Part shown: positions 12,215 through 62,544 of the stretch, in pieces
How positions within the stretch are numbered: the stretch's first letter is position 1
How the letters are laid out: every line of letters begins with the position of its first letter
NCBI RefSeq assembly: GCF_004010195.1
Contig: NC_057754.1
Location: 1,818,306-1,882,305 of the forward strand
Source of the DNA: Chiloscyllium plagiosum
Taxonomy: Eukaryota
Direction: 5' to 3'
Length of the DNA: 64,000 nt
Position numbers and translations under genes: made by a program
Notes under the pieces: generated by a model
The model's database searches: none
Told to the model about the DNA's origin: nothing
Seen by the model: only the letters and a program-made list of their open reading frames with translations

Positions 12215-12452
12215 AAAATAAAACAAAGAACTGTGGATGCTGTAGATCTGAAGCAAAAACAAAAATTGCAGAAGAAACTCAGCAGATCTGGTGTAATTTG
12301 TGGAGAAGAAGCAGAGTTAACATGTAGAGTCCAATGACCCACCTTCACAAATGTTTTGATGAAGTGTTACTAGACTGGAAACGTAGCAGCTGCTTTATCT
12401 CCATGGTTGCTGCCAGACCTGCTGAGTTTCTCCAGCAATTTCTGGCTTTGTT
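12215..12452. mobile_element. Fold-back PLE pLTR insertion, family D, old
   Basis: Imperfect inverted arms AAATTGCAGAAGAAACTCAGCAGATCTGG / CCAGACCTGCTGAGTTTCTCCAGCAATTT with a decayed hammerhead core between them. Confidence 0.75.
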
Positions 12453-15562: not shown

Positions 15563-15667
15563 CAGAGAAAGTGAGAACTGCAGAAGGGCTTATGCCCAAA
15601 ACGTCAACTCTTCTGCTCCTTGGATGCTACCGAGCTTCTGTGTTTTTCCAGCACCACACGTTTTGAC
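15563..15667. mobile_element. Short rearranged PLE pLTR insertion, family A, with decayed TSD
   Basis: GAAGGGCTTATGCCCAAAACGTC hammerhead remnant; ACAAATAACACTCAGTG (15543-15559) vs ACAAATAACATTCAATG (15666-15682). Confidence 0.7.
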
Positions 15668-21505: not shown

Positions 21506-21683
21506 GAGAGTGTGGTGTTGGAAAATCGACATTTCAGGCATAAGCCCTTTATCAGCCCTGATGAAGGGTTTATGTCCGAAATGCCAATTCTCCTGCTCCT
21601 TGGATGCTGCCTGACCTGCTGTGATTTTCTAGCACCACACTCTCTACTCTCATCTCCAGCATCTGCAGTCCTCACTTTCTCCC
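21506..21683. mobile_element. Fold-back PLE pLTR insertion, family A, with two back-to-back decayed hammerhead cores
   Basis: AGGCATAAGCCCTTTATCAG-CC-CTGATGAAGGGTTTATGTCCGAAA; TSD GAGAGAACAGAT (21494-21505) / GAGAGAACAAAT (21684-21695). Confidence 0.85.
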
Positions 21684-41743: not shown

Positions 41744-42064
41744 GGGCGGCACGGTGGCACAGTGGTTAGCACTGCTGCCTCACAGCGCCAGAGACCCGCA
41801 TTCAATTCCCGACTCAGTCAACTGACTGCGTGGAGTTTGCACATTCTCCCCTTGTCTGCGTGGGTTTCCTCCGGGTGCTCCGGTTTCCTCCCACAGTCCA
41901 AAGATGTGCAGGTCAGGTGAATTGGCCATGCTAAATTGCCCGTAGTGTTAGGTAATAAGGGGTAAATGTAGGGGTATGGGTGGGTTGCGCTTCGGCGGGT
42001 CGGTGTGGACTTGTTGGGCCGTAGGGCCTGTTTCCACACTGTAATGTAATCTAATCTAATCTAA
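41744..42064 (+). mobile_element. Young HE1-type V-SINE
   Basis: GGGCGGCACGGTGGCACAGTGG head, (AATCT)n tail, CpGs retained. Confidence 0.95.
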
Positions 42065-42216
42065 AAACTTTTATAGGTGCACCATAGAAAGCATTCTATC
42101 CGGATGCATCAAGGCTTGGTATGGCAATTGCTCTGCCCAGGACCACAGGAAACTACAAAAAGTTGTGAACACAGACCAGACCATTATGCAAGCCAACCTT
42201 CCATCCACATTAGTGT

Positions 42217-42731
42217 ACATGAGCAAAACTAATATAGTGTACAAAATACCATGCAAGGACTGCACAAAACACTATATAGGACAAACAGGAAGACAGCTAA
42301 CAATCTGCATACATGAACATCAACTAGCCACGAAACGACACGACCAGCTATCCTTAGTAGCCACACACGCAGACAACAAGCAACATGAATTCAACTGGGA
42401 CAACACTACTATCATAGGGCAAGCCAGACAGAGAACAGCCAGGGAATTCCTAGAGGCATGGCATTCATCCACAAACTCCATCAACAAACACATCAACCTG
42501 GACCCAATATACCAACCACTACAGCGGACAGCTGAAACTGACAACCGGAAGCGGCAGGGACAGGCCACTATAAACACCGGAGGAAACATCAAAGAAGCGC
42601 TTCGCAGGAGGCTCCCAAGCACTGATGATGTCGCCTAGCCAGGGGACGAAACGTTTGCAACAAAAACTTCCAGCTCGGCGAACAGAACCACAACAACGAG
42701 CACCTGAGCCACAAATCTTCGCACAAACTTT
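42217..42731 (+). mobile_element. 5'-truncated Penelope-like element (family C) with an uninterrupted GIY-YIG endonuclease domain
   Basis: SKTNIVYKIPCKDCTKHYIGQTGRQLTICIHEH...REFLEAWHS...SINK within ORF 42165-42638. Confidence 0.92.
42619..42658 (+). ncRNA. Minimal type I hammerhead ribozyme (family C)
   Basis: GCA-CUGAUGA-U-GUC(GCCUAGCCAGGG)GAC-GAAA-CG-UU/UGC: stem I GCA:UGC, palindromic AACGUU. Confidence 0.8.
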
Positions 42732-44331
42732 CCAATCTAGTGTTTGCTCTTTGTGAACCTTCTCTGCAGCCGTAACACTATATTTCTCTCTCTGTTCTGT
42801 GATCCTGTGCATTTTGTTTGAAATTACCTGCCTGTACTGCACACAAAACAAAACTTCTCACTCTACACAGGTAAATGTGACTATAATAAATCAAATCAAA
42901 ACAAATCAAATTATTTGCGTGAGTGTCCGACATCCCAAGATCTCCAACAGGTGAAGACCAAGTGCAGACAGGAAGAAGAATGCAAAAACCTGAGCATCCC
43001 ACCCACCCATCTGCCTCTTTAAACATCTGTCTGACCTGTGGAGGATGTGTGGATCTAGCATTGGACTGTTCAGTTACACGAGGGCTCATGTCTCTAGAGT
43101 GGAAGAAAATCATCCTTAGTTTTGATGGAACTGCCTAAGTGGAGGAAAATTTCAATGTACTGTGTCAACTGTTAAGGATATCCTTCTTTTGATAAAGAAT
43201 GTCAGATTCAGTCATCTGCAAGTATGAGTATTTTGGATTTGTAGTCTCAAATGCCTCCGATTCAGCATTGCACTCACCTCTGCTCTTATTTTAATTGAAG
43301 GAAATGGTAGGGTTTGGAGCCTTGGGAGCTTTGTGCTCAGATCAGCCTGAGTAACGCAGGCTAACTTGTGCAGTATTCCTTCATTTCATTTTTTTTTCAT
43401 CTTTTCACTTTATGTTTTTCCACCTGTGATGCATTATTGCCTGCAGGTTAATGCACCAGGAGCTCTCACAGCCTTATCTCACAGAATCAGAATATTGTTC
43501 CCAAATTGTTAACAGGATTCCCTAGCTGAGCCATCTAACTAAAAATCTAATGAAGAAATGAAATATATCACAGCCACACCATCAGTGCAACCTTTCCCCA
43601 CAGGAGACTAGTCTCCTGCTAGTATCTATTTAAAGTGCCATCTGGGGTCTCATTCAAATACTAAGCTGCTCAGCATATGACAGTATTGAGAAGATCATAG
43701 CGGCCACCTCCTTTGGGAGTTTTTTTTACTCTATTGTAACACCATCCACTCTTGCTTGGTGCTTAGATTACCGAACATTGAAATTCAGATGAAGAGAGCC
43801 ATTATCTCAGTCTCTTGGACTTGATGAAGATAGATTTTAGAATTTAACTCTTGTCTCTCCTCTATTAAAGTCAATGAGGTGTTTCTGTGCGCTTAAAGCC
43901 AAAATATTTTTCTCTAACAGAAAACAAAGTGTACTGTGATCATGATAAAATTAGAAATGCTGCAAAGCTTCAGTATAAACAGAGGCTGTTGGATGAATGA
44001 AATACATTGATCAGTTTCTGAAAGAAAAAATGCGGTGTGATGTTTTGACTAGCGATGCTTCACCTGGGTTGATTTAGGAAGGAAGGGGGTGAATAATTCT
44101 TGTAGGATTACTGTGGTAAAGAAGCAGCTTGTGTGTTTAATATTTTAAGACAATTTGATTTTAAGTGTGGAAAAAGTCAAAATGACCTCAATAAAAGACT
44201 GAGATCAATTCTAAAGCAAGGTCACAGGACCTTGAGACATTAACTGTTTTCTCTCCATAGATGCTGCCACACCTGCTTAGTTTCTCTAGTAATTTCTGTT
44301 TTTGTTTCAGATTTCCAGCATACACTGATTC

Positions 44332-45152
44332 TTAGAATCATACAGTGCAGAAATGCCCCTTTGGGCCATCAAGTCCACACAGTCATAACTACCACTAAAG
44401 GTGCTGTAATCCCAACTTCTTGCATTTGTCCCATATCCTTGAATGTTATGATATCTGAAGTGCTCATCCAAATATTTTTTGAAGATTCTAAGATTGCCGA
44501 TCTCCACTACCATCCCAGGCAGTGCATTCCAGATTCCCCCCACCTGTTGAGTGAAAACATTTTTTCCCAAATCCCCTCTGAATCTCCTGTCCCCTCCCCT
44601 AAAACTATGCCTCTTATGATTGACACCTCAACCAAGGGGAACAGCTGCTCTCTATTCATCCTGTTCATACTCCTCATTATCTATACACTCAATGGTGTCC
44701 CCCCTCAGTCTTTTCTGCTCTAATGAAAACAATCCAAGCCTATTTAGTCTCTTCTTATAGCTCATTTTCACTATCCTAGGCAACATCCTGGTGAACCTCC
44801 TCTGTACCCCCTCGAGTGCTATCACATCCTTCCTGTGGTGAGGTGACCAGAACTGCACACAGTACTCCAGTTGTGGTCTGATCAAAGCTCTCTATAAATT
44901 CAACATTATGTCCTTGCTCTTTTACTCTACACTATGACTGATGAAAGCAAGTGTTCCTATGTCTTCTTAACTATACTATTCATGTGCTCTGCCCACTTCA
45001 GAGATCTGTGGATAGTTACCCCAAAATTCCCTCTGTTCCTCTATACTGTGTTCTGCCCTTCATTAAATATTCCCATGTCTTGTTTCTTCTTCCAAAATGC
45101 ATCACCTCACACTAATCAGGGTTAAATACCATCTGTCATTAGTCTGCCCATT
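44332..45152 (-). mobile_element. CR1-type LINE 3' fragment
   Basis: IRPQLEYCVQFWSPHHRKDVIALEGVQRRFTRMLP. Confidence 0.9.
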
Positions 45153-45839
45153 CGCAGTTCTTTGTTTTTTTTGTTAAGATTACCCGAGTCAGGTTGTGAA
45201 TAGGAATACAACAGATACAAGATGAGTTAAGCCACTCCAAAAGCAACAGTCTCAAATTGGAATAGAGCTGATTTTTATGTAAGCCAGATTTTTCAGCTAA
45301 TACTTTTGTTTTGGTCGTACAGTTAACATCAGACTTACATAGCCTGAACCAGGGGTGCATGACTGCCATTGACAGCTATTTTAACATCCTTAACCGGCTA
45401 TTGGCTTTTAGATGTTAAACTGTGAGGATGGATTGTTGCATTGATGTTCTTACTGTATTTTTGAATTCAGAAAGAAAATCCAAATCAGTAAAGTGACACT
45501 GTTTTGGAGGGCTGGTGGGAACTCTGGTGAGTTTTGTTCATGTAGCTTTGAGGGTTGCTAATATTTAGAATTTTAGAAAGCAGTGTTTAGAGCAGCAATT
45601 AAAACCATTAATTGAAACTTTGTTTCTCCTCTTTCCCAGGGAAATTTCAAATTTGTTCTGACCTCTTGAAGATCTGCTGTTCTTGATAACACGACCCTTT
45701 TCCGTGGAAGATGTGTTTGATTACTTCTCCTTATGTCACAGTTACAAACTATATCAACCCCTTAGAATCTTCCTTTATTCCTTCCACTTTCTGGCTTTAA
45801 AAACACCAGCTTGGCATCACCGAACTACAACCTTGCGCT

Positions 45840-46198
45840 TAAAGATGTACAGCATGGAAACAGACCCTTTGGTCCAACTCATCCATACTGACCAGATATC
45901 CAAACCCAATCTAGTCCCACTACCAGCACCCAGCTCATATCCTTCCAAACCCTTCCTGTTCATATACCCATCCAGATACTTTTTAAATGTTGCAATTGTA
46001 CCAGCCTCCACCACTTCCTCTGGCAGCTCATTCCATACACGTACACCCTCTGTGTGAAAAAGTTGCCTCTTAGGTCTCTTTTATATCTTCCCCTCTCACC
46101 CTAAACCTATGCCCTCTAGTTCTGGACTCCCCCACCCCAGAGAAAAGACTTTGTCTGTTTATCCTATCCATGCCCCTCATGATTTTATAAACCTCCTT
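45840..46198 (-). mobile_element. CR1/HER1-type LINE 3' end
   Basis: EVYKIMRGMDRINRQSLF...SRTRGHRFRVRG; tail shared with the HE1 3' end. Confidence 0.9.
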
Positions 46199-46989
46199 AA
46201 TCTTATTTTCTTCCATTCTGCACATATTTTTCAGTATTCTCTCAATTTTATATGAACATTGAGTTGTGGATTGAAAACTTTCCAATTTAAATAACCAGTA
46301 TCATCATTAAATATTTCTGTATCTGATGCTGTGCTTGCTCTGTTCCAAACAACATGCCTCAGTCGCAGTTCATCATGTTCTGCACCAGTATATTTTCCAT
46401 TTCCCACACTAATCAGTTGGTTCCACTGAACATGATTGTCAATCATTGCTGAATTAAGGCCTATCTTGTGCTTTAATCCACTAGAAACTCAACTGAGATT
46501 GCTCAGAATGCTCACAAAGGATCCAGTGCAGTCAGCAAATAAATTGGATTTCCATTCAGACAGTCTGGGGAGGATTGGTCCCAGAAGTGAAAGGCCAACA
46601 CATAATCCAGTGTGCCACCAAATTTCCTTAGCACGAGCCTTCTACATGATTTCTCTGAACAACTATCTGACAGAGCTCTCTGGATAATCAATGCAATTAC
46701 CCTGACTGCAACTTCAAGAGGATTAAAATAGATTTTCATTGCTGTAATGGTTGTAGATTGAATAGAGTGGTCTGCGATGATTGAGCCAAGATAGGTTGCA
46801 GGGACCATGACTGTCTCTGTCAGTTTGAGGTGGGCAAAAAAAGTTTTGGAAGACTCCTCCATTTTTTGCCTGAAGACTCTGCCATTTGTCTTTGGCCTTC
46901 TTTTCTGTGCAATTTAGAGATTCTTCTTCAAAGTAATTGTGTCTCTTTCTCCAATTACCAGGCCCTCTGGCCAAGAAGGTCAAATATGA

Positions 46990-47004
46990 ACACACACACA
47001 CACA

Positions 47005-47072
<68 letters not shown>
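46990..47072. repeat. Compound (CA)n/(CT)n microsatellite
   Basis: Direct observation. Confidence 0.95.
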
Positions 47073-47073
<1 letters not shown>

Positions 47074-47195
47074 CAAAAGTGAGGACTGCAGATGCTGGAG
47101 ATAAGAGTCGAGAGTGTCATGCTGGAAAAGCACAGCAGGTCAGGGAGCATCCAAGGAGCAGGAGAATCAACGTTTCGGCAAAAGCCCTTCATCAG
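47073..47195 (-). mobile_element. PLE family-A pLTR ending exactly at the hammerhead core
   Basis: Minus strand CTGATGAAGGGCTTTTGCCGAAACGTTGATTCTCC; inserted within a CA tract. Confidence 0.85.
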
Positions 47196-47663
47196 ACAGA
47201 CACACACACACCATACATGCCACCATGCAGTTTTGAACAAGTTGAGTATGATTTTGGAACTTGTTTCTTGATAATTTTACTAAATGCAAAGCAGACAGAT
47301 ATCTTCTGGTTTCAGTTGTATTTAATGAAAAGAATCGACATGCAAATATGAATTGATATGTTCTACAGAAGCAGGCAAGTTGATTTTAATGTACTATTTC
47401 TATCAGGTTTGAAATTGGGTAAAAGCTGGAAGCCATGACAGAGGAGGATATAATTCTAGCAGGTTGCATGCCACAAAAGGTTGGGAACGCGATGGGCACA
47501 AAAAGAAATACTCAATAGAACCTAGAAAATTGCTTTGATTACCTGGCTCTCAAGAGTGGCAGTCAATTTCTTTTGGCTATTTGGCAAATCTTTCCAGCTC
47601 CAAAGTGGACTGTTTTCTCTCCTTCACAATTAATGACCTCAAGCATTCCCAGGTTCATATACT

Positions 47664-47864
47664 AGGAGAAAGTGAGGTCTGCAGATGCTGGAGATCAAAG
47701 TTGAAACTTTATTGCTGGAACAGCACAGCAGGTCAGGCAGCATCCAGGGAACAGGAGAAACTCTCTGCTCATTCCTGAAGAAGGGCCTGTGCCCGAAACG
47801 TCGAATCTCCTGTTCCCTGGATGCTGCCTGACCTGCTGTGCTGTTCCAGCAATAAAGTTTCAAC
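47664..47864. mobile_element. Young fold-back PLE insertion, family A, with perfect 59-bp arms and 14-15 bp TSD
   Basis: Arms 47700-47758 and 47806-47864; TSD CAGGTTCATATACT at 47650-47663 and 47865-47878. Confidence 0.92.
47771..47806 (+). ncRNA. Minimal type I hammerhead ribozyme (family A), intact
   Basis: AUUC-CUGAAGA-A-GGGC(CUGU)GCCC-GAAA-CG-UC/GAAU; predicted cleavage after 47802. Confidence 0.85.
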
Positions 47865-48639
47865 CAGGTTCATATACTGCCTTGCTGCTTTTTCCTAGCT
47901 TCAGAGAATCTAAAGGTCTCCATCTTAATGAGGATTACCCTCAGTAGTGAGAGAACCACAAAAATTAAAGTACTTGCGGTAAAGAATAGGTGAGTAATGA
48001 TAAATAGAATAAAGGATGGAAGATGTGTCATTCATCTACTTAGGTGCTGGTCATGGGTAAATGGTAGTCTATGTCAATGGAGTACCATATATGATATTAG
48101 AAAGTGATTTAGCATGAAGCGATTATTTCAGTTTAGATTAATTCTTAATCCTTGGGTGCATGTTTCTACTGAAGGTAAATTGTGGAAAAGGTATAGCTTC
48201 CAGATTAAAAGGAATAACATTGACTTTCAAAACTGCTGTTAGACTATATTGAGGATGATAAATTTTATAATTACTTAAAATCAAATGTTAGAATTATAGA
48301 AATGGTTCATTCATTATATGTGTGATTCACCAGTTACATTTTAAACTTTCTTCCCTTTCTCCCATTTCTCTTGAAGGCAAGATTCCACAGATTCTCCCTA
48401 ACTCTCTATTACTACTAATAAAGATCTCTCAGAAGGAGGAACACAACCAAAGCTTATCAAAAACATATTAAGCGAACCTAAAAACTGAACCTTCAGAGAT
48501 ATTATATAAATTAAATCCTGACAGTGTGTGATTGGTGTGCACTGCAGCAACTGGTCATCATAGCAAACAGTAGCCAGGACGTTCTGGTGGGATTTACCTG
48601 GAAAGGGAGTGAGAGCTAAGTATGTAACTAGACAGAAGA

Positions 48640-48745
48640 GGCTGATGTGGTAGTGCCCCTACTTCAGAGCCAGAAAGCCTGTGTTCAAGTCCACTTGCTC
48701 CAGAAGCATGCCATAATATATTTGAATGCATTGATTAAAATATAT
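48640..48745 (+). mobile_element. Short (~110 bp) tRNA-headed SINE (family 4)
   Basis: GTGGTAGTGCCCCTAC...GTTCAAGTCC; two minus-strand relatives at 58172-58415. Confidence 0.55.
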
Positions 48746-51039
48746 CTATAACTGGCTGGAATTCAGGGCTTGTACCACTGTCTCCATATTTCCAGTGGTC
48801 ACAGATCCATTTCTGGGTTGTTTCTTTCTGCCATTAATAAGTGTTTGACGTTTGCTGTAGACCTGCATGATTTCACAGAAGGCATAATCTTTTTCTATGT
48901 GTTTACTTTCTGAAATTTCTGTTCATTTTACCCTTGATTCAGCTCTCTGATATTTTCCCAATTACAAATTGCAGATTGACGTACAGCCCACCTGGCTTAT
49001 TAGATTACAATCATGCTCAGGGTGTCTTTTCAGGCTGTCATGAGAGACAGAAGTAACATCAGTCAATCAGCTGTGCACAGATGCATTAAACAAAACCACA
49101 GAGGCATTACTTACTAGAATAAGTAATTTCATCTTCATCCCTGTTGGCAGTTGGTGGCAGCACAATGTACCTTGCAATTTTAGTGACTAGCAGCATTCCT
49201 TGGTGCAGGGAGTTTAAGACTGTATTCACATGCCTTCTGGGTTCAATACCCATGTCAAGAGGAAGGCTCAACTTGTTTCTGACAGCAGTGCTGCAATTTG
49301 CAGTTAGGTGAATGCTCATGTCCCTGGGAGTTATCATAATGCTTTCATTTTAAAATATCCACTGTGCTTTTGTGTCCTGAAACAAAAGTGCATGGAAAGG
49401 TTGAGTAAAGAATAATCCCAGCTGGAGCATCTCCAGAAACAGTGTTCATTGTCACTGGTAACAATAGGAAGCAATTAAAGCTGGCAAAGATGGATCACTG
49501 TACACGTCAGGCATGCTTAGCTGCAGCGCATCCTTGGAAAATGTGGCTGACCCTCCTTACCTGATCTGAAAAAATTGTTCAGATTCTTTCAGCTTGCACT
49601 AATTACCCTGGCTACACTTTCCACCTCCGAGAAGTCTAGTTTCTCCGATCTTTGAGTCATTAAAACAATTTTGGCAATGTTTGTTTGCCTCCATAAAGCT
49701 ACTGCAAGGTTTTGAAATTTTACAATGACTTTCAATTTCAGGCATCTCAATAGGCAAGTTTTGATGCCTGGGTATGAATGGCTTGCAGGTGGGAAACAGC
49801 AAGCTGCTAATGGGTCATTGTTGGCGTGGAAGCAGGTAGCAGAGTGCTTCAGCTGCTCACCCTGAAGCTGGCCAGCATGCTACTCACTGCTCACCCACTG
49901 GAGGAGGATCAAAGCCACCTCTGGTTCTTCACATGTGCTTCCTCTGAGGGTGGAAGAGCTGCTTTCTGTACATTTGCAAGTGTGAATGTAAGCTGTTTGA
50001 GCAATGGAGATTCGGTGTCAGAGCGACCCACTTCCAGGTTGCAGGTGTATCTCAGAATTCCACTAATAGCCAATTAACAGCTTCTGCTTCCCTTAAAGAT
50101 GTTGCAGGTGCTGCTGTTAATGGGCAATTAACAGTTTGCTGGTGTTCTGAGTTGTCACATTAACAGGAAAACTGAAGTGTCGACAAGATAGCGTGTCCGC
50201 TCAGATATGTGGTGACTTTAAAACTGGGGAATGGCATGTTCTTATCTGTGCCAACCTTTTGTAATACAAGAAATTGACAGTGAAGGAGTGGCAAGGCTTT
50301 TCAACATTCAATCATACCCCAATGCTCTCTTTTTGATATTTGAGTTTACTGCTCGTTTCACACTTTTTTTCCCAGGGAATCCTCTTTCTCCTCTTCAAAT
50401 TGCGCTGTACCAGTGTAAGTTGTTACTTCAGTACCTCATGTGTGTTCTATTAAAGCTTTCTAATGGGCTAAAGCCTTCAATCTTATCAACCCAAAGCAAC
50501 TGTTTCTGAATGCATGTGACATTCATAACAAAATAAATTCACATATTGTGTCCATTACAGGAAATAAATGTCATGGTAGGCAGTATGGAGGAAGGCTTCA
50601 GGATGACAAGGAATGGGTCATGAATATTAAGTATAAGACATTTAACAAAAATAGGAAGTTATGTAAAGGTGGAGAAATAGCACTGTAAATTAAAAATGTC
50701 ATTTTACCATAATTAAAGATGATCTTGGCTTAGGAAATCAGGATGTTGAATCTGTTTGAGTGGAGATGTAGAATAGTAGTGGAAAGAAGTCACTACTGGG
50801 AGTGGCCCATTGCACCCCCCCCCCCCCCCCCCAAACGGTAACTATAAAATGGGACAAAACACAGAAGAAAAGATATTGGATGCTTCTAATAAAGGAATAA
50901 CAATAATTACAAATGATTTTAATCCACATATAAAGGGGAAAAATCAAAGTGGAGTAGCCTAGATGGAGAGTCAAGGAAGGCTTTTGAGACAGTTTATTTG
51001 ATCAGTACAGTTTTCAACCAACCAGGAAACAGGTTATCT

Positions 51040-52150
51040 GAAAGAAAAACATAAAATGTTGGAGAAACTTAGTAGGTCTGACAGTATATTTGGGGAGAGA
51101 AACAGTTAATGTTTCAAATCTGATATATTTGTCTTCAGAACTGAAATGGGCTGTGTGCAGTTGACAGAGGTGAGGGTGCCCACAGCAAAGACAAAGGGAG
51201 TGCTAACCATAGTAGAAGTGAATTGAAATATAAAAGAGATGTAATGATGGGGGTGAAAGGAGAAAATGGCTCTGCTCTCCTGAGATCAAAACCAAGAAGT
51301 CACAGGAAGACTCTGGGGAAAGTAAGTGGGGTTTGTACTCAAAATGGAAGACAGTGGTCATGCTCTGAAATTATTGAACTCTGAAGTCATTGGCAGAAAT
51401 AAGATTCCTTGTGCTTCATTGCAACTCTGCAGCAGACCCAGGGCTGAAGTAGCGTCATAGAGATGTACAGCACAGAAACAGACCCTTTGGTCCAACTCGT
51501 CCATTACGACCAGATATTCCAACCTAATCTAGTCCCACTTGTCAGGACCTAGCCCATATCCCTCTAAAGCCTTCCTATTCATACACACATCCGGATGCCT
51601 TTTAAATGGTGCAATTATACCAGCCTCTACCACTTCCTCTGGCAGCTCATTCCATACATGCGCCACCCTCTGTGTGAAAAAGTTGCCCCTTAGGTCTCTT
51701 TTATGTTGTTCCCCTGCCACCCTAAACCTATGTCCTCTAGTTCTGGACTCCCCCACCCCAGGGAAAAGATCTTGTCTATTTACCCTATCCATGCCCTTCG
51801 TGATTTTATAAACCTCTGTAAGGTCACCCCTCAGCCTCCGACGCTCCAGGAAAAACAGCCCAGCCTATTCAACCTCTCCCTATAGCTCAGATCCTCCAAC
51901 CCAGGCAACACCCTTGTAAATCTTTTCTGAACCCTTTCAAGTTTCACAACATCCTTCCGATGGGAAAGAGACCAGAATTGTACGCAATATTCCAACAGTG
52001 GCCTAACCAATGTCCTGAAATATTAGCATGGAAACAAGACAGTTCATTTCAATGGTTCTTTTAATGTTCCTGGACCCAAAACATTAACTCTGATTTCTCT
52101 CCACAAATGCTGCCAGACCTGCTCAGTTTTCCAGCAGTTTTTTTGGTTTT
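51040..52150 (-). mobile_element. Old PLE 3' remnant with inverted family-D termini, interrupted by CR1
   Basis: Family-D pLTR in opposite orientations at ~51045-51140 and ~52075-52150. Confidence 0.5.
51456..52017 (-). mobile_element. CR1/HER1-type LINE 3' fragment, relatively young
   Basis: MDRVNRQDLFPGVGESRTRGHRF...LRGNFFTQRVAHVWNELPEEVVEAG. Confidence 0.92.
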
Positions 52151-52688: not shown

Positions 52689-53183
52689 ATTAGTATGTTG
52701 GTGCAGCACAGAAACAATATCATCAACAGGATGCTGCCTTATATTCTGAAAGAAATGCACCATAAAATAAGAATGTTCTGTTTCAGTTATACAGGGCATT
52801 GATGAGACTCCATTTTGAATACTCTGTAGTTTTGGTCTCCTTATTTAAGAAAGGATGGCATGGAAATAGTTTGGAGGTTTACTAGATGGATACCTGGAAT
52901 GAATAGATTGTTTTTCGGATGCCATTCTTCAGCCAGTTTCATTCACTCCAGATCAGATTAAGAAATGGCCGAAGGCACTGGAAACTACAAGACTGTGAGC
53001 CCTGATGACTTTCTACCAATGGTAGTGAAGACTTCTGTTCCAGAGGTAGCCTCACCACTGTCCAAGCTGCTTTAATAGCTAAAACCATGGCATCTCCCTG
53101 GCATTGTCCTGTTAACAAGGAAAAAGTCCAATTATTGCCCTTTGAGCCTTTTTTGATCATCAACAAAGTGATGGAAGGAGTTG

Positions 53184-53340
53184 AGGAGAAAGTGAGGTCT
53201 GCAGATGCTGGAGATCGGAGCTGAAAATGTGTTGCTGGAAAAGGAATCCTGAAGAAGGGCTTATGCCCGAAAGGTCGATTCTCCTGTTCCCTGGATGCTG
53301 CCTGACCTGCTGCGCTTTTCCATCAACACATTTTCAGCTC
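53184..53340. mobile_element. Fold-back PLE insertion, family A, with perfect 15-bp TSD
   Basis: TSD TGATGGAAGGAGTTG at 53169-53183 and 53341-53355; arms 53218-53243 and 53315-53340. Confidence 0.92.
53244..53281 (+). ncRNA. Minimal hammerhead ribozyme (family A) with mutated stem-III palindrome
   Basis: GAAUC-CUGAAGA-A-GGGC(UUAU)GCCC-GAAA-GG-UC/GAUUC. Confidence 0.7.
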
Positions 53341-53668
53341 TGATGGAAGGAGTTGTTGACATTCTACCCAGCAACATTTGGTCAGCAGTAACCTGCTCAC
53401 TGCTCACTGACACACAGTTTGGGTTCTGCCAGGCCCATGAGGATCCAGATCACAAAAGAGCTGAACTCCATAGATAAGGTGGAGATTCAGGTGGATTTTG
53501 ACAGCAAGGCAGCATTTGACTGAACATGGCATCAAGGAACCCTAGAACATCTGGAGTAAGTGGGAATGGGGAAACCTTTCCACTAATGGAGTCATACTGA
53601 ATATAAGGGAACACATTTGTGGTTTTTGGAGGTCAATCATCTTAGTCCCTACACACCAGTGTAGGAGT

Positions 53669-58661: not shown

Positions 58662-58728
58662 GAGAGTGTGGTCCTCGAAAAGCGGAGCAGGAGAATTGAC
58701 GTTTCAGGTAAAACCCCTTCATCAGGAA
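58662..58728 (-). mobile_element. 67-bp PLE family-A mini-insertion (essentially a hammerhead) with perfect 15-bp TSD, inside a family-2 SINE
   Basis: TSD TGTTAATCTAGGACT at 58647-58661 and 58729-58743; minus strand TTCCTGATGAAGGGGTTTTACCTGAAACGTC. Confidence 0.85.
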
Positions 58729-60898
58729 TGTTAATCTAGGACTCATGTTCTGGGGTTCCAGGTTCGAATCCTGCCAAATTGTGGAGTTTGAATTCAGTAA
58801 AAATTTGGAATTAACCATCTGATAATGACCACAGATCCAAAGCTAATTATCCTTTAAGGAAGGAAACCACCATCCTGACCTGATCTAGCCTACATGTGAC
58901 TCCACATCTGTACAGAGCTGAGACTGAATTCCTTGGAGGGTGTTCTGCCAGTGCTGTTGGGAGGCCTTCATGATAACTTGTCAGGGGTGTAGGAACCAAG
59001 AGAGATTAGTCGAGAAAAATTCTCAGGTTAACAAAATACTTAGGGATACAGTTGGCACTAGCATAGAGAAAAGTAAGCCAATATGTGGAGTTGCAGTAAG
59101 AGACAAAGAAATGAAGCCTAAATCAGGGTTACAATGCATATATGTGAATGCTCAGAGTATAGTAACTAAGAATGGAGTTACAGGCACACATTGCCACGTA
59201 GAAATATGATGCTGTAGTGAGACCTAGATCAAAGAAAGGCAAGACATGAATGTTCAATATTCCTGGGTACAAGGTGTTCAGAAAAGGTAGGAAAGGGGGG
59301 AAGGGGTGACAGTCGTGGTTAAAGACAGCATTGCAGTGCTGGAGAAAGAGGATGTCACAGTGGGTTCAAGGAAAGAAGCAATTTTGCTAGAGCTAAGGAA
59401 CAAAAAGGGTGCTGGGATAGTATGCTAGAAATGAAGACCTGCAGGATTCCCCGATTTATCTGCCTTTCTGACATTAGTTGACAGAAAGCACAGGGAACGT
59501 TCTTGTTAAGTGCAGAAATGATCATTTATTAGAAATAAATTGAGTTTAGCTGCACATAAATAATTATGAACCATTGGCCTATACCCGCACTCGTCAAAAT
59601 TCTAACCCACTTATAAACTTCTCTATAAACATATACGGACAGACACGAATAGGGAAAGAAACATGATTGTTATAGGTAGAGGGTAAAACAGGAAAGAAGT
59701 TCAATAGTTCCTTTTCACAAGATTTGCTGAGGTGATTCTTGTGCTGATCAGGACGCTGGCTGCTGCTTAACCTTCCCTTCTGCAAATGCTATCACTTGAT
59801 TGTAGGAAGCACCAGGTCATTGGTTTACATCTACGAAGGTCTCTGACTTATTATTTAAAAGTCTCATCTTGTAACAAATGCTGAAAGGAAAATAAACTGG
59901 TTTTCTTCAAGCTTAATGTGATTTTACTGCAGAGAACAGAGCTTCTGAGCTTACAGAAATCTGATACTTTTTCCCTACTTTGTTCATAGCACCAAACTAT
60001 TCTGCTACCTAGGAGTGAATCACATAGTTATTGGCTGGTAAAAGTCCTTTGTCATCCATAAATGGTTACTAATCCACAAACCAATCAGATATTGGTTGAA
60101 TTTCCTTTTGTACATACCCCTGGCTCCAGTTCCTTTGTAAACCTTTCCCTACTGCTTGAGACAGCAGATGTGTAAACAGTGCTTACAATGAGTATCAGGT
60201 TACCTGTTTTGAAAAAATTGCAATAATCCAACAACAATCCATGCTTTAAAAAGATGTTCTTTTCTTACTTCAGTCTAAAGTCAAATATATAGCAAAATAA
60301 AAAGATATGTTATTTACGCTTCCCATGCATTCTCTCCACAAAAAATGTCTCAGCTTCACGTAGAAAAAATAATCAAACTGATATTTTTAGGAAACCAAAG
60401 AGTTGTAGTGGAATTTTTGTGTAAAATTGATTCGCTAAGGCCTCTAAGAGGACAAAAGTTCAGCATGAAGCATGTGTAACATCTGTGCAGATATGTAGAG
60501 CTGGAACTTTGGATTGCAAAGAAAATAGATGAGACTAAATTAAATACTCTAAGGAGAAGGCTTCAGATATACAGTTGAAATCAGGAAGAAACAATGCATT
60601 TCAAATAACACAGTTTGGATTAGCCTTAAATAGCAAATTGTAAGCAACATAATGAGGATGAAAATGCTTCATTTATTTGGATGTGTTTAGGCTGTTAAAA
60701 GAGAAGCTACCAGAGTGAAGCTCTGTCTGGTTTCAAAGGAATGAAAAAGGTCAATTTAATGCAAAATAGCAAATTGAAACTGGACTTGGTTTCTTTCATC
60801 CAATATGTTTGCAGACTTCAGTACAAAAATATTGGCTGATGCTTCTGCACAGTTTAGAGAAAGGCCAGCACTGTATTTTGTATGACACATTAAACTGG

Positions 60899-62544
60899 GG
60901 GTCAAAAAGTGTGGTGCTGGAAAAACAGAGCCAGTCAGGCTGCATCCGAGGATCAGGAGAGTTGACGTTTTGAGCATAAGGTCTTCATCAGGAATCGCTG
61001 CCAGAATCACCACTCACCGCCTACATAACTGCCTCCGTGATTGCTGCCAGAACCACCACCGCTGCTGCCAAGACAACCACCTTGGCAATCGCCGCGAGAA
61101 CATCAATGCCTCCGCAATCACAACCAGGATCACCGCCTCCACCAAGACAACCGCCTCTGCGATCTCTACCAGAACCACTGCCACCGAGACAATCGCCTCT
61201 GTGATCTCTACCAGAACCATTGCCACCTAGACAACCGCCTCTGCGATTGCCTCCAGGATCACTACCTCCGCAATCGCCTCTAGAACCAGCACCACTTCTG
61301 CGATTACTGCCGAAACCACCACTGCTCACTGACAGAACCACCACCACAGCCACCAGGATCGCAGACTCCGTGATCACTGCCTCCACAATCGTCGTCAGAA
61401 CCACCGCCGCCAAGACAACTGCCTCCGCGATCACTGCCAGAATCACCACTACAGCCACAAGATAACTGCCTCTTCGATTGGTGCCAGAACCTTCATGATC
61501 GCCGTCAGGATCACTGCCTCCATGATTGTCACCAGAACGACCACCACTATATGCCAAGACAACAACCTCTGCGATTGCTGCCAAGATAAACATCTCTGCG
61601 ATCACCGCCAGGATCACCGCTTCCACAATCACTGCCAGAACCACTACTTCTGCCGCCAGGGCAACTGCCTCTGCATCACCACCAGAACCATCACCATCTC
61701 CGTGCTCACCGCCTCTGAGATAGCTGTCAGAACCACCACTGTCAAGATAACTGCCTCCGCGATCGCCGCCAGATCATCACTGCCTCTGCAATTGCCACTA
61801 GAACCACCGCCGCTAAGGTAACCGCCTCCGCGATCGCCGCCAGACCATCAGTGTCTCTGCAATTGCCACCAGAACCACCGCCGCTAAGGTAACTGCCTCT
61901 GAGATCGCCGCCAAAACCTCCGTGATCACCATCAGGATCACCATCACCACAATTGCTGCCATAACCACCACCACTCTCCACGAAGACGACCGCCTCTGTG
62001 ATCGCTGCCAGAACCACCACCACTGCCGCAAGGTAACTGCCTCCGTGATTGCCACCAGAATCTCTGTGATCGCTGCCAAAATCTCCAGAAACTGCTCTCC
62101 CTCCGATCCTCCGCTCCACATACAGCCATACGCCACCATCTACTCTCCCTGCAGTCAGCCTTGCCTCAGCTCAGGGCCACACTCTCTCCCAGACCCACAA
62201 AGGACTTCTGCTGTTCTTCATCCTGAGACAAATCCAGACAGCCAGCAAGTGCTTTTTCTCAAGCTTAACTGACATCAAGGAATGTAAGTTCATCAGACTT
62301 TCACATACTTACCTCCAAACTTGAGATTCCTTGATCATTCCAGAACTATCTCCCAATCTCCAAAATCGCTCGGATGCCATCACAGCAAACAATGATGTCA
62401 CTTCTGCCCCCGCCTCCCCACAGACTGCAACCACCACCGACTATACCGCCTCCGTGATCACCGCCAACACAACTGCCTTCGCGATCGCTACCAGAACCAC
62501 TGCTGCTGAAACCACCACGAAGGCTACCTCTTACATTCTCCCTC
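60899..62544. mobile_element. PLE-associated insertion: inverted family-A pLTR, expanded triplet-periodic minisatellite and probable PLE ORF N-terminal remnant
   Basis: TSD CACATTAAACT at 60886-60896 and 62545-62555; splits a Deu-type SINE (~60790-60898 and 62545-62745). Confidence 0.7.
60994..62085 (+). repeat. Variable-unit GC-rich minisatellite (ATCGCCGCCAGAACCACC...ACTGCCTCCGCG)
   Basis: About 30 degenerate units, mostly 15-48 bp; reads IAARTTTAKITASA in one frame, broken by frameshifts; smaller patch at ~62420-62525. Confidence 0.9.

Follow-up and report, generated by a model that had tools for sequence, protein, structure and literature searches.

A hammerhead-bearing hairpin and its probable origin in a single recent Penelope-like insertion

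The window analyzed here, a stretch of 64,000 nucleotides from Chiloscyllium plagiosum, contains a short unit in which a long perfect hairpin carries a hammerhead ribozyme motif in its loop, the whole being flanked by direct repeats. Does such a unit move and act as an entity of its own, or is it what one insertion event left behind? An earlier note, made from the letters of the window, had taken the former position and described an intact ribozyme that is mobilized together with its hairpin as a 200-bp unit. Our analysis points with good confidence to the latter: a single recent insertion of two head-to-head pLTR pieces from a young endonuclease-bearing (EN+) Penelope-like element (PLE). This insertion probably arose in one step and probably carries the hammerhead as an idle passenger.

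Structure and age of the insertion

The insert is 200 nt long (47664-47863) and is bracketed by a direct repeat of 15 nt (47649-47663 and 47864-47878), the two copies of which are identical. Its parts are listed below; the reference coordinates of the pLTR are those of one natural long copy, L030.

47649..47663, no strand: left copy of the target-site duplication (TSD), 15 bp; a single copy is present at the empty site of organism B
47664..47699, minus strand: unpaired Penelope 'tail' of 36 nt (reference 277-312), ending outward at end site 2
47700..47758, minus strand: left arm, an antisense copy of pLTR reference 218-276
47759, no strand: a single additional A where the two pieces meet head to head; this junction occurs nowhere else in the genome
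47760..47864, plus strand: piece of the pLTR in sense (reference 172-276), ending outward at end site 1
47769..47774, plus strand: initiator-like hexamer; its A at 47771 opens stem I and is where copies of the family most often have their 5' end
47771..47806, plus strand: minimal type I hammerhead, with a predicted cut after 47802
47806..47864, plus strand: right arm of the 59-bp hairpin, with AATAAA at 47851-47856
47864..47878, no strand: right copy of the TSD, its first base common to the arm; seen as a direct repeat and from the empty site

Mapped on L030, the insert runs antisense from 312 to 218, continues with the one extra A, and then runs in sense from 172 to 276. The arms are 59 nt each, 100% complementary and separated by 47 nt, which bears out the perfect inverted arms that had been claimed at these coordinates. 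The plus-strand RNA folds with a z-score of -15 (compared with 200 shuffles). Since the C at 47864 belongs to both the right arm and the direct repeat, the duplication had previously been given as 14-15 bp. Inverted repeats at both termini are absent, as the left arm starts 36 nt inside the insert. The unpaired tail at one end makes the unit lopsided and leaves it without terminal inverted repeats as its bounds.

The direct repeat is a true TSD of 15 bp, as had been claimed, and the proof lies in a related species. In organism B, single contigs of 4,089 and 4,090 nt, from two runs of two studies, join 47648 directly to 47864. This is the empty orthologous site that the earlier note had proposed to look for in related species, and it lacks exactly the 200-nt insert plus one 15-mer. 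Between the flanks of organism B and the window there are 19 differences in 936 nt and one indel. For organism A, run X1 contains both junctions of the insert, and the right junction was found again in X5, which represents another sample. Because the site is empty in organism B, the insertion is younger than the split of the two species. Together with the identity of the arms to a coding copy of the family (L203, below), the empty site upholds the proposal of recent activity.

The share of contigs that are at least 99% alike to the focal repeat was compared between the organisms in runs X1, X5, X9 and X10. It amounts to about a fifth in organism A (5,120/27,199 and 4,436/23,427) and to about 3% in organism B (551/15,521 and 503/16,764), which suggests a burst of a young pLTR subfamily after the split of the two organisms.

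The parent element and its hammerhead

Both focal pieces match the pLTR of the coding copy L203, in which a 749-aa frame with RVT_1 (E 1e-8) and GIY-YIG is followed by this repeat. The left arm and the tail form one piece of 95 nt that is identical to the L203 repeat (95/95), and so is the sense piece at 47760-47864 (105/105). Given this match of 200/200 nt, the parent is a young endonuclease-bearing Penelope-like element. RVT_1 and GIY-YIG stand in one frame in L201 as well as in L203; RVT_1 scores above its curated cut-off in L203 only, and GIY-YIG does so in other fragments. In L118, L119, L120, L123 and L201, the hammerhead-bearing pLTR lies in sense orientation just 3' of the ORF, with the motif about 155 nt behind the stop codon. 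The occurrence of the same repeat behind frames with RT and GIY-YIG supports the Penelope pLTR origin that the earlier note had ascribed to the hammerhead.

In the translated loci, the endonuclease is C-terminal, a CX4CxxC linker precedes it, and two cysteines lie inside GIY-YIG. The motif definitions were those of PMC8557442, where a CX2-5CxxC linker before GIY-YIG is given for Neptune/Nematis-type PLEs; judged by this linker motif, the parent is of the Neptune/Nematis type. Two loci with widely spaced matches, L112 and L103, were considered as full-length elements and rejected, as neither is full-length. The open reading frames listed for 36000-60000 of the window are retroelement fragments, with no assignable exon among them.

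The hammerhead is composed of stem I (47771-47774 / 47803-47806), the core (47775-47781), an extra A (47782), stem II (47783-47786 / 47791-47794) and GAAA (47795-47798). Stems I and II have 4 bp each, and stem III is a palindrome of 4 nt without a loop, that is, of the dimer type. Only two bases lie between A15.1 and U16.1, so that stem III needs a second molecule. The word 'intact' used in the earlier note thus holds for the letters of the minimal core, which are as described, and fails for stem III, which cannot close within one molecule. The motif is the only one in the unit, and no hammerhead core is present on the minus strand. In the folding model, which omits tertiary contacts, the pair probabilities were 0.83-0.89 for stem II and 0.01-0.04 for stem I; the two stems were formed together with a probability of 0.006 in the hairpin versus 0.012 in the plain repeat. 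A search of 44000-52000 against Rfam returned no hammerhead family up to E = 1, and a sub-threshold Rfam microRNA match on the perfect stem was rejected as chance. The primary paper on dimer hammerheads is reportedly that of Lunse et al.

The focal motif shares with the minimal type I hammerheads of metazoan PLEs, as described in PMC4209133, the core, an extra base between 9 and 10.1, the G10.1-C11.1 pair, the palindromic 15.2-16.2 and a short stem I. It differs from them in its A at position 7 and in having no neighbouring cis partner motif; its stem II has 4 bp, compared with 7-8 bp in the Schistosoma examples of the same source. According to PMC4209133, a single minimal motif showed no detectable cleavage in vitro and dimers cut weakly; the review PMC6765202 likewise gives no cleavage for a single minimal motif and weak cutting by dimers. 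The PLE ribozyme tested in PMC11167929 cut only together with its protein. A self-cleaving loop, as the earlier note had envisaged, is unlikely for a minimal motif of the dimer type, single examples of which were left uncut in vitro (PMC4209133), and in the focal stub the hammerhead is likely an idle passenger.

In RNA run X21 (single-cell poly(A) data, about 2% of the run, shallow), 486 reads fell on the repeat and none on the flanks. Of these repeat reads, 97% continue into other sequence, and none could be tied to the focal locus. Run X15, the RNA nature of which is only guessed, contributed one contig of 151 nt on the left flank, at depth 3. Read starts showed no accumulation in the RNA runs, X21 being shallow. 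The young subfamily carries AATAAA at 47851-47856, just before end site 1, and 44 reads of X21 pass from 47864 into a run of A (agreement 0.57); some copies of the repeat may thus serve for polyadenylation.

Formation of the hairpin

A 24-mer of the arm has 19,334 exact matches genome-wide, while the 31-mer across the focal junction has a single match in 3.56 Gb. Our census was composed of the loci of the first 100 of the 19,334 arm matches, in the first 18 Mb of contig 1, and takes in only copies with the exact 24-mer on this part of one contig. It yielded 74 insertions: 38 with a single arm, 30 head-to-head and 6 others. The 30 hairpins are a minimum, as L051 was scored as single although two arms are present. 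Extrapolated from the census (30/74), the genome contains about 14,000 insertions and about 5,700 hairpins. A duplication of 12-17 nt was found in 24 of the 30 sampled hairpins, among which there are 26 different junctions. The focal junction being unique against 19,334 arm matches, and the sampled hairpins having so many different junctions, the focal hairpin was most likely made at insertion and not mobilized as a unit. The mobilization as a 200-bp unit proposed in the earlier note thus finds no support, given the single occurrence of the junction and sister hairpins with junctions of their own, and neither does the proposed identity as a MITE or retrozyme.

One junction recurs three times among the 30 hairpins and another twice. 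Genome-wide, recurrent junctions sit on short repeats. Where the antisense arm stops at reference 215-227, the most frequent junction makes up 22 of the 100 matches listed (hand count); its overlap is exactly the four bases of ribozyme stem I, which fits cleavage and equally fits plain microhomology. Where the arm stops at 228-240, a junction on a 5-nt repeat makes up roughly a third of the 100 matches listed. Two hairpins, L064 and L112, share a junction and about 120 nt of foreign sequence, and hence hairpins are occasionally re-copied, as passengers. In L112:1393-4400, a 3-kb composite between repeat pieces and a short duplication encloses DNA that does not belong to the element; at L064:540-1116, 577 nt of this composite, with a hairpin and about 120 nt of foreign sequence among them, recur 3.5 Mb away. 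The composite looks like capture and re-copying of host DNA.

The outer ends of the copies fall at two sites, reference 276-278 (site 1) and 311-312 (site 2). In 26 of the 30 hairpins one arm ends at each site, and the other 4 combine site 2 with a shortened arm. Site 1 is therefore paired with site 2 in all 26 classable hairpins, and the same site is used twice in none of the 30, an outcome with a probability of about 1e-9 under independent choice. Among the single-arm copies (n = 38), 13 end at site 1, 24 at site 2 and 1 elsewhere. In the focal copy, the site-1 arm has 46 nt (reference 172-217) that are absent from the site-2 arm, and the site-2 arm has the tail; each arm holds sequence that is missing in the other, so neither simply duplicates the other. 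In 13 of the 30 hairpins, the tail-less arm extends beyond the 5' limit of the tailed arm by more than 5 nt. Both arms reach reference 200 or further 5' in 22 of the 30, which are near-palindromes. The last 7 nt of the focal junction and its restart point are common to two other copies (3 matches genome-wide), and in these the antisense arm is 60 nt longer and ends in the same letters.

The biochemistry of a PLE is described in PMC11167929 for a lizard element of the Poseidon clade, that is, from another animal. There, the PLE protein, for which a dimer is predicted, nicks both target strands and extends them in vitro. Reverse transcription begins at two neighbouring internal sites, between which the tail lies, and ribozyme mutants insert normally. 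For the present family, we propose that the element protein, probably as a dimer, would nick both target strands about 15 nt apart. From each free end, reverse transcription would be primed at an internal position of the RNA, site 1 for one end and site 2, at a distance of 36 nt, for the other; the two cDNAs would run toward the 5' end of the RNA, stop, and be joined head to head. Fill-in of the staggered nicks would produce the duplication. A region copied twice would become the stem, and a region copied once would become the loop or the tail. In the focal copy, the cDNA from site 2 would have stopped at 218, just 3' of the ribozyme, or else that part of the arm would have been deleted later; in either case the ribozyme would stand in the loop by accident. 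Since two other copies share the last 7 nt and the restart point and have an antisense arm 60 nt longer, a later deletion between two 7-nt direct repeats in a longer palindrome fits as well as a stop of the cDNA.

Twin-priming inversions of L1 are made during insertion by priming from both target strands and give two consecutive segments. The process proposed here is similar in that the inversion would arise during insertion by priming from both target strands, and differs in that both primers would start at fixed neighbouring sites and copy the same stretch, resulting in a palindrome.

A different route was proposed for rotifer Penelopes (PMC3846280): one cDNA folds back and copies itself by self-priming, and later trimming or deletion gives the loop. 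The 22 hairpins in which both arms extend to reference 200 or beyond are in keeping with it, and the strict pairing of sites 1 and 2 could reflect ordered steps on one molecule. However, a fold-back copies only the content of the first cDNA, whereas the tail-less arm is longer at its 5' side in 13 of 30 hairpins, by 46 nt in the focal one, and single-arm copies end at both sites. As each focal arm has sequence that the other lacks, plain fold-back cannot yield the focal copy, and we consider this route unlikely. A third reading takes the 200-bp hairpin for a non-autonomous MITE- or retrozyme-like element that is transcribed and re-inserted as a unit. The perfect arms with their TSD, the recurrence of some junctions genome-wide, and the one pair of hairpins with shared foreign sequence would agree with such an element. 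Yet the focal junction occurs once in the genome, no other match spans all 200 nt at more than 89% (40 scored of 233 candidates), and the recurrent junctions lie on short repeats that favour independent joining. Moreover, the two copies nearest to the focal junction have swapped outer ends, and neither a tandem array nor a terminal inverted repeat is present. This reading is extremely improbable. Non-LTR retrozymes (bioRxiv 10.64898/2026.07.22.740005) resemble the focal unit in being non-coding and derived from a pLTR with a type I hammerhead, but they are head-to-tail tandem units with a motif in each, whereas the focal unit is a single head-to-head stub with one motif.

A fourth reading sees in the locus a working source of double-stranded RNA, opened by its ribozyme, that would have its own role as a substrate for siRNA production or for ADAR. 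Read-through of the locus on either strand would, by the predicted pairing of the transcript, give a duplex of 59 bp, reads of the family occur in an RNA run (the 486 reads of X21), and the catalytic letters are unmutated; the last of these is explained by the youth of the copy. Set against this, a single molecule cannot close stem III, the folding model seldom forms stem I, single minimal motifs were uncut in vitro (PMC4209133), and a close relative lacks the insertion. The 5' half of the core is likewise retained in at least 469 other hairpins (152 + 317), next to an arm ending 3' of the cut. We regard a dsRNA source of this kind as highly improbable, and a self-cleaving hairpin with its own role, while possible, as unlikely. 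If the genome holds about 5,700 perfect hairpins of 60-100 bp, some of them would be read through and feed dsRNA pathways, and nothing marks the focal copy out among the family's hairpins as such a source.

Two pLTR pieces joined at insertion, the preferred reading, have a layout that is already described for EN+ PLEs. The legend of Fig. 2 in PMC8557442 gives it as an inverted 5'-truncated copy with a tail of 30-40 bp at one end and a TSD, and insertions of an inverted pLTR plus tail are described for Pen2a_Av of Adineta vaga (PMC3846280) and for the Penelope of D. virilis (PMC2377424). The focal stub is likewise a head-to-head, 5'-truncated inverted copy with a one-ended tail (36 nt) and a TSD around the whole. 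In contrast to the EN+ PLE insertions described in these sources, it is devoid of any ORF, its halves are about 100 nt each, its TSD has 15 nt rather than 8-10, and such stubs number thousands per genome (about 5,700, extrapolated). PAc, the Poseidon element of Anolis carolinensis (PMC11167929), also has two adjacent internal end sites that bound the tail and a hammerhead about 60-100 nt upstream of them, cleavage being apparently unneeded for insertion; unlike PAc, the parent of the focal stub has the Neptune/Nematis-type cysteine linker. The main text of PMC11167929 has no treatment of inverted products, of the pairing of two sites or of the 5' ends of short copies. The focal unit is thus a real, recent and ordinary Penelope stub. 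The locus amounts to ordinary transposon debris, a young lineage-specific insertion and at most a phylogenetic marker.

The RNA template and related sequences

Where did the copies stop on their template? More than half of the inner ends (55/98) lie at reference 181-189, while only 2 of 98 lie at the cut site (212-219). Cleavage of the template as the reason for the short arm ending at the ribozyme cut was rejected on this count and on the genome-wide arm stops. Exact-pattern matches for an antisense arm ending 3' of the cut site together with a sense arm holding the 5' half of the core number 152 and 317; arranged along the reference, the genome-wide arm stops are 317 (228-240), 152 (215-227) and 32 (202-214), with no peak at the cut. 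The mode of the inner ends, at 183-184, is the first base of stem I (window 47771) and falls within the hexamer 47769-47774, which we take to resemble an initiator motif. We infer a transcription start at window 47771.

An extra G that stems from a copied cap is known for other retroelements. Genome-wide, the base before copies that start at A183 is G in 897 cases and A or T in 429, both patterns leaving out copies with a G two positions upstream; the share of G is 0.68, compared with 0.25 expected from the composition of the window. For copies that start one base further in, a hand count gave 28 G versus 72 T among the 100 matches listed of 279. When 25 loci with G were examined, 13 scored as inverted; for 5 of the 13, the G could belong natively to the other arm. 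In one hairpin, a C follows the end of one arm and a G precedes the other, and of the 5 single copies whose duplication is clear, 4 have the G outside it.

The pile-up of inner ends at stem I rather than at the cut site, together with the excess of G there, inclines us slightly towards a capped RNA as the template. Such an RNA would begin at the first base of stem I and would be copied uncut to its cap by two RT active sites, each taking one of the start sites. In that case the ribozyme would be a module at the 5' terminus, and the end of the template would not be its product.

Among the papers found on shark PLEs, cap-derived G and twin priming in PLEs, none reports a 5'-end pile-up or a pairing of sites; both may be described in Arkhipova 2006 and in Evgen'ev and Arkhipova 2005, and Fig. 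S2 of PMC11167929, on genomic ends, may bear on the 5' ends. The formation of inverted repeats and the role of the hammerhead in PLEs are stated open questions (PMC8557442, PMC11167929). To these, an extrapolated 14,000 or so near-identical short insertions offer answers that can be counted in vivo: the two start sites pair in a fixed way, ends gather at what is probably the start of a capped RNA, and the cut site shows no accumulation of them. The end statistics of the family make both the insertion mechanism and the role of the ribozyme testable. If the reading of a capped, uncut template is true, the stubs preserve, like fossils, the Penelope insertion reaction as it took place in the germ line of a living vertebrate.

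The window contains further related sequences. A second fold-back stub, at 53169-53344, belongs to an older subfamily (about 88% identical) and has the same layout with a 15-bp duplication; the hammerhead in its loop has a mutated stem III palindrome. Six older fragments of the same family, 76-84% identical, lie at 12378-12439, 15578-15653, 21557-21682, 47076-47195, 58684-58730 and 60915-60995. At 42060-42638 there is a frame of 192 aa, the second half of which reads, by eye, like the GIY-YIG endonuclease end of another Penelope-like family. Finally, a different minimal hammerhead-like motif with a longer stem II is present on the plus strand at 1021-1060 and probably comes from another Penelope family.
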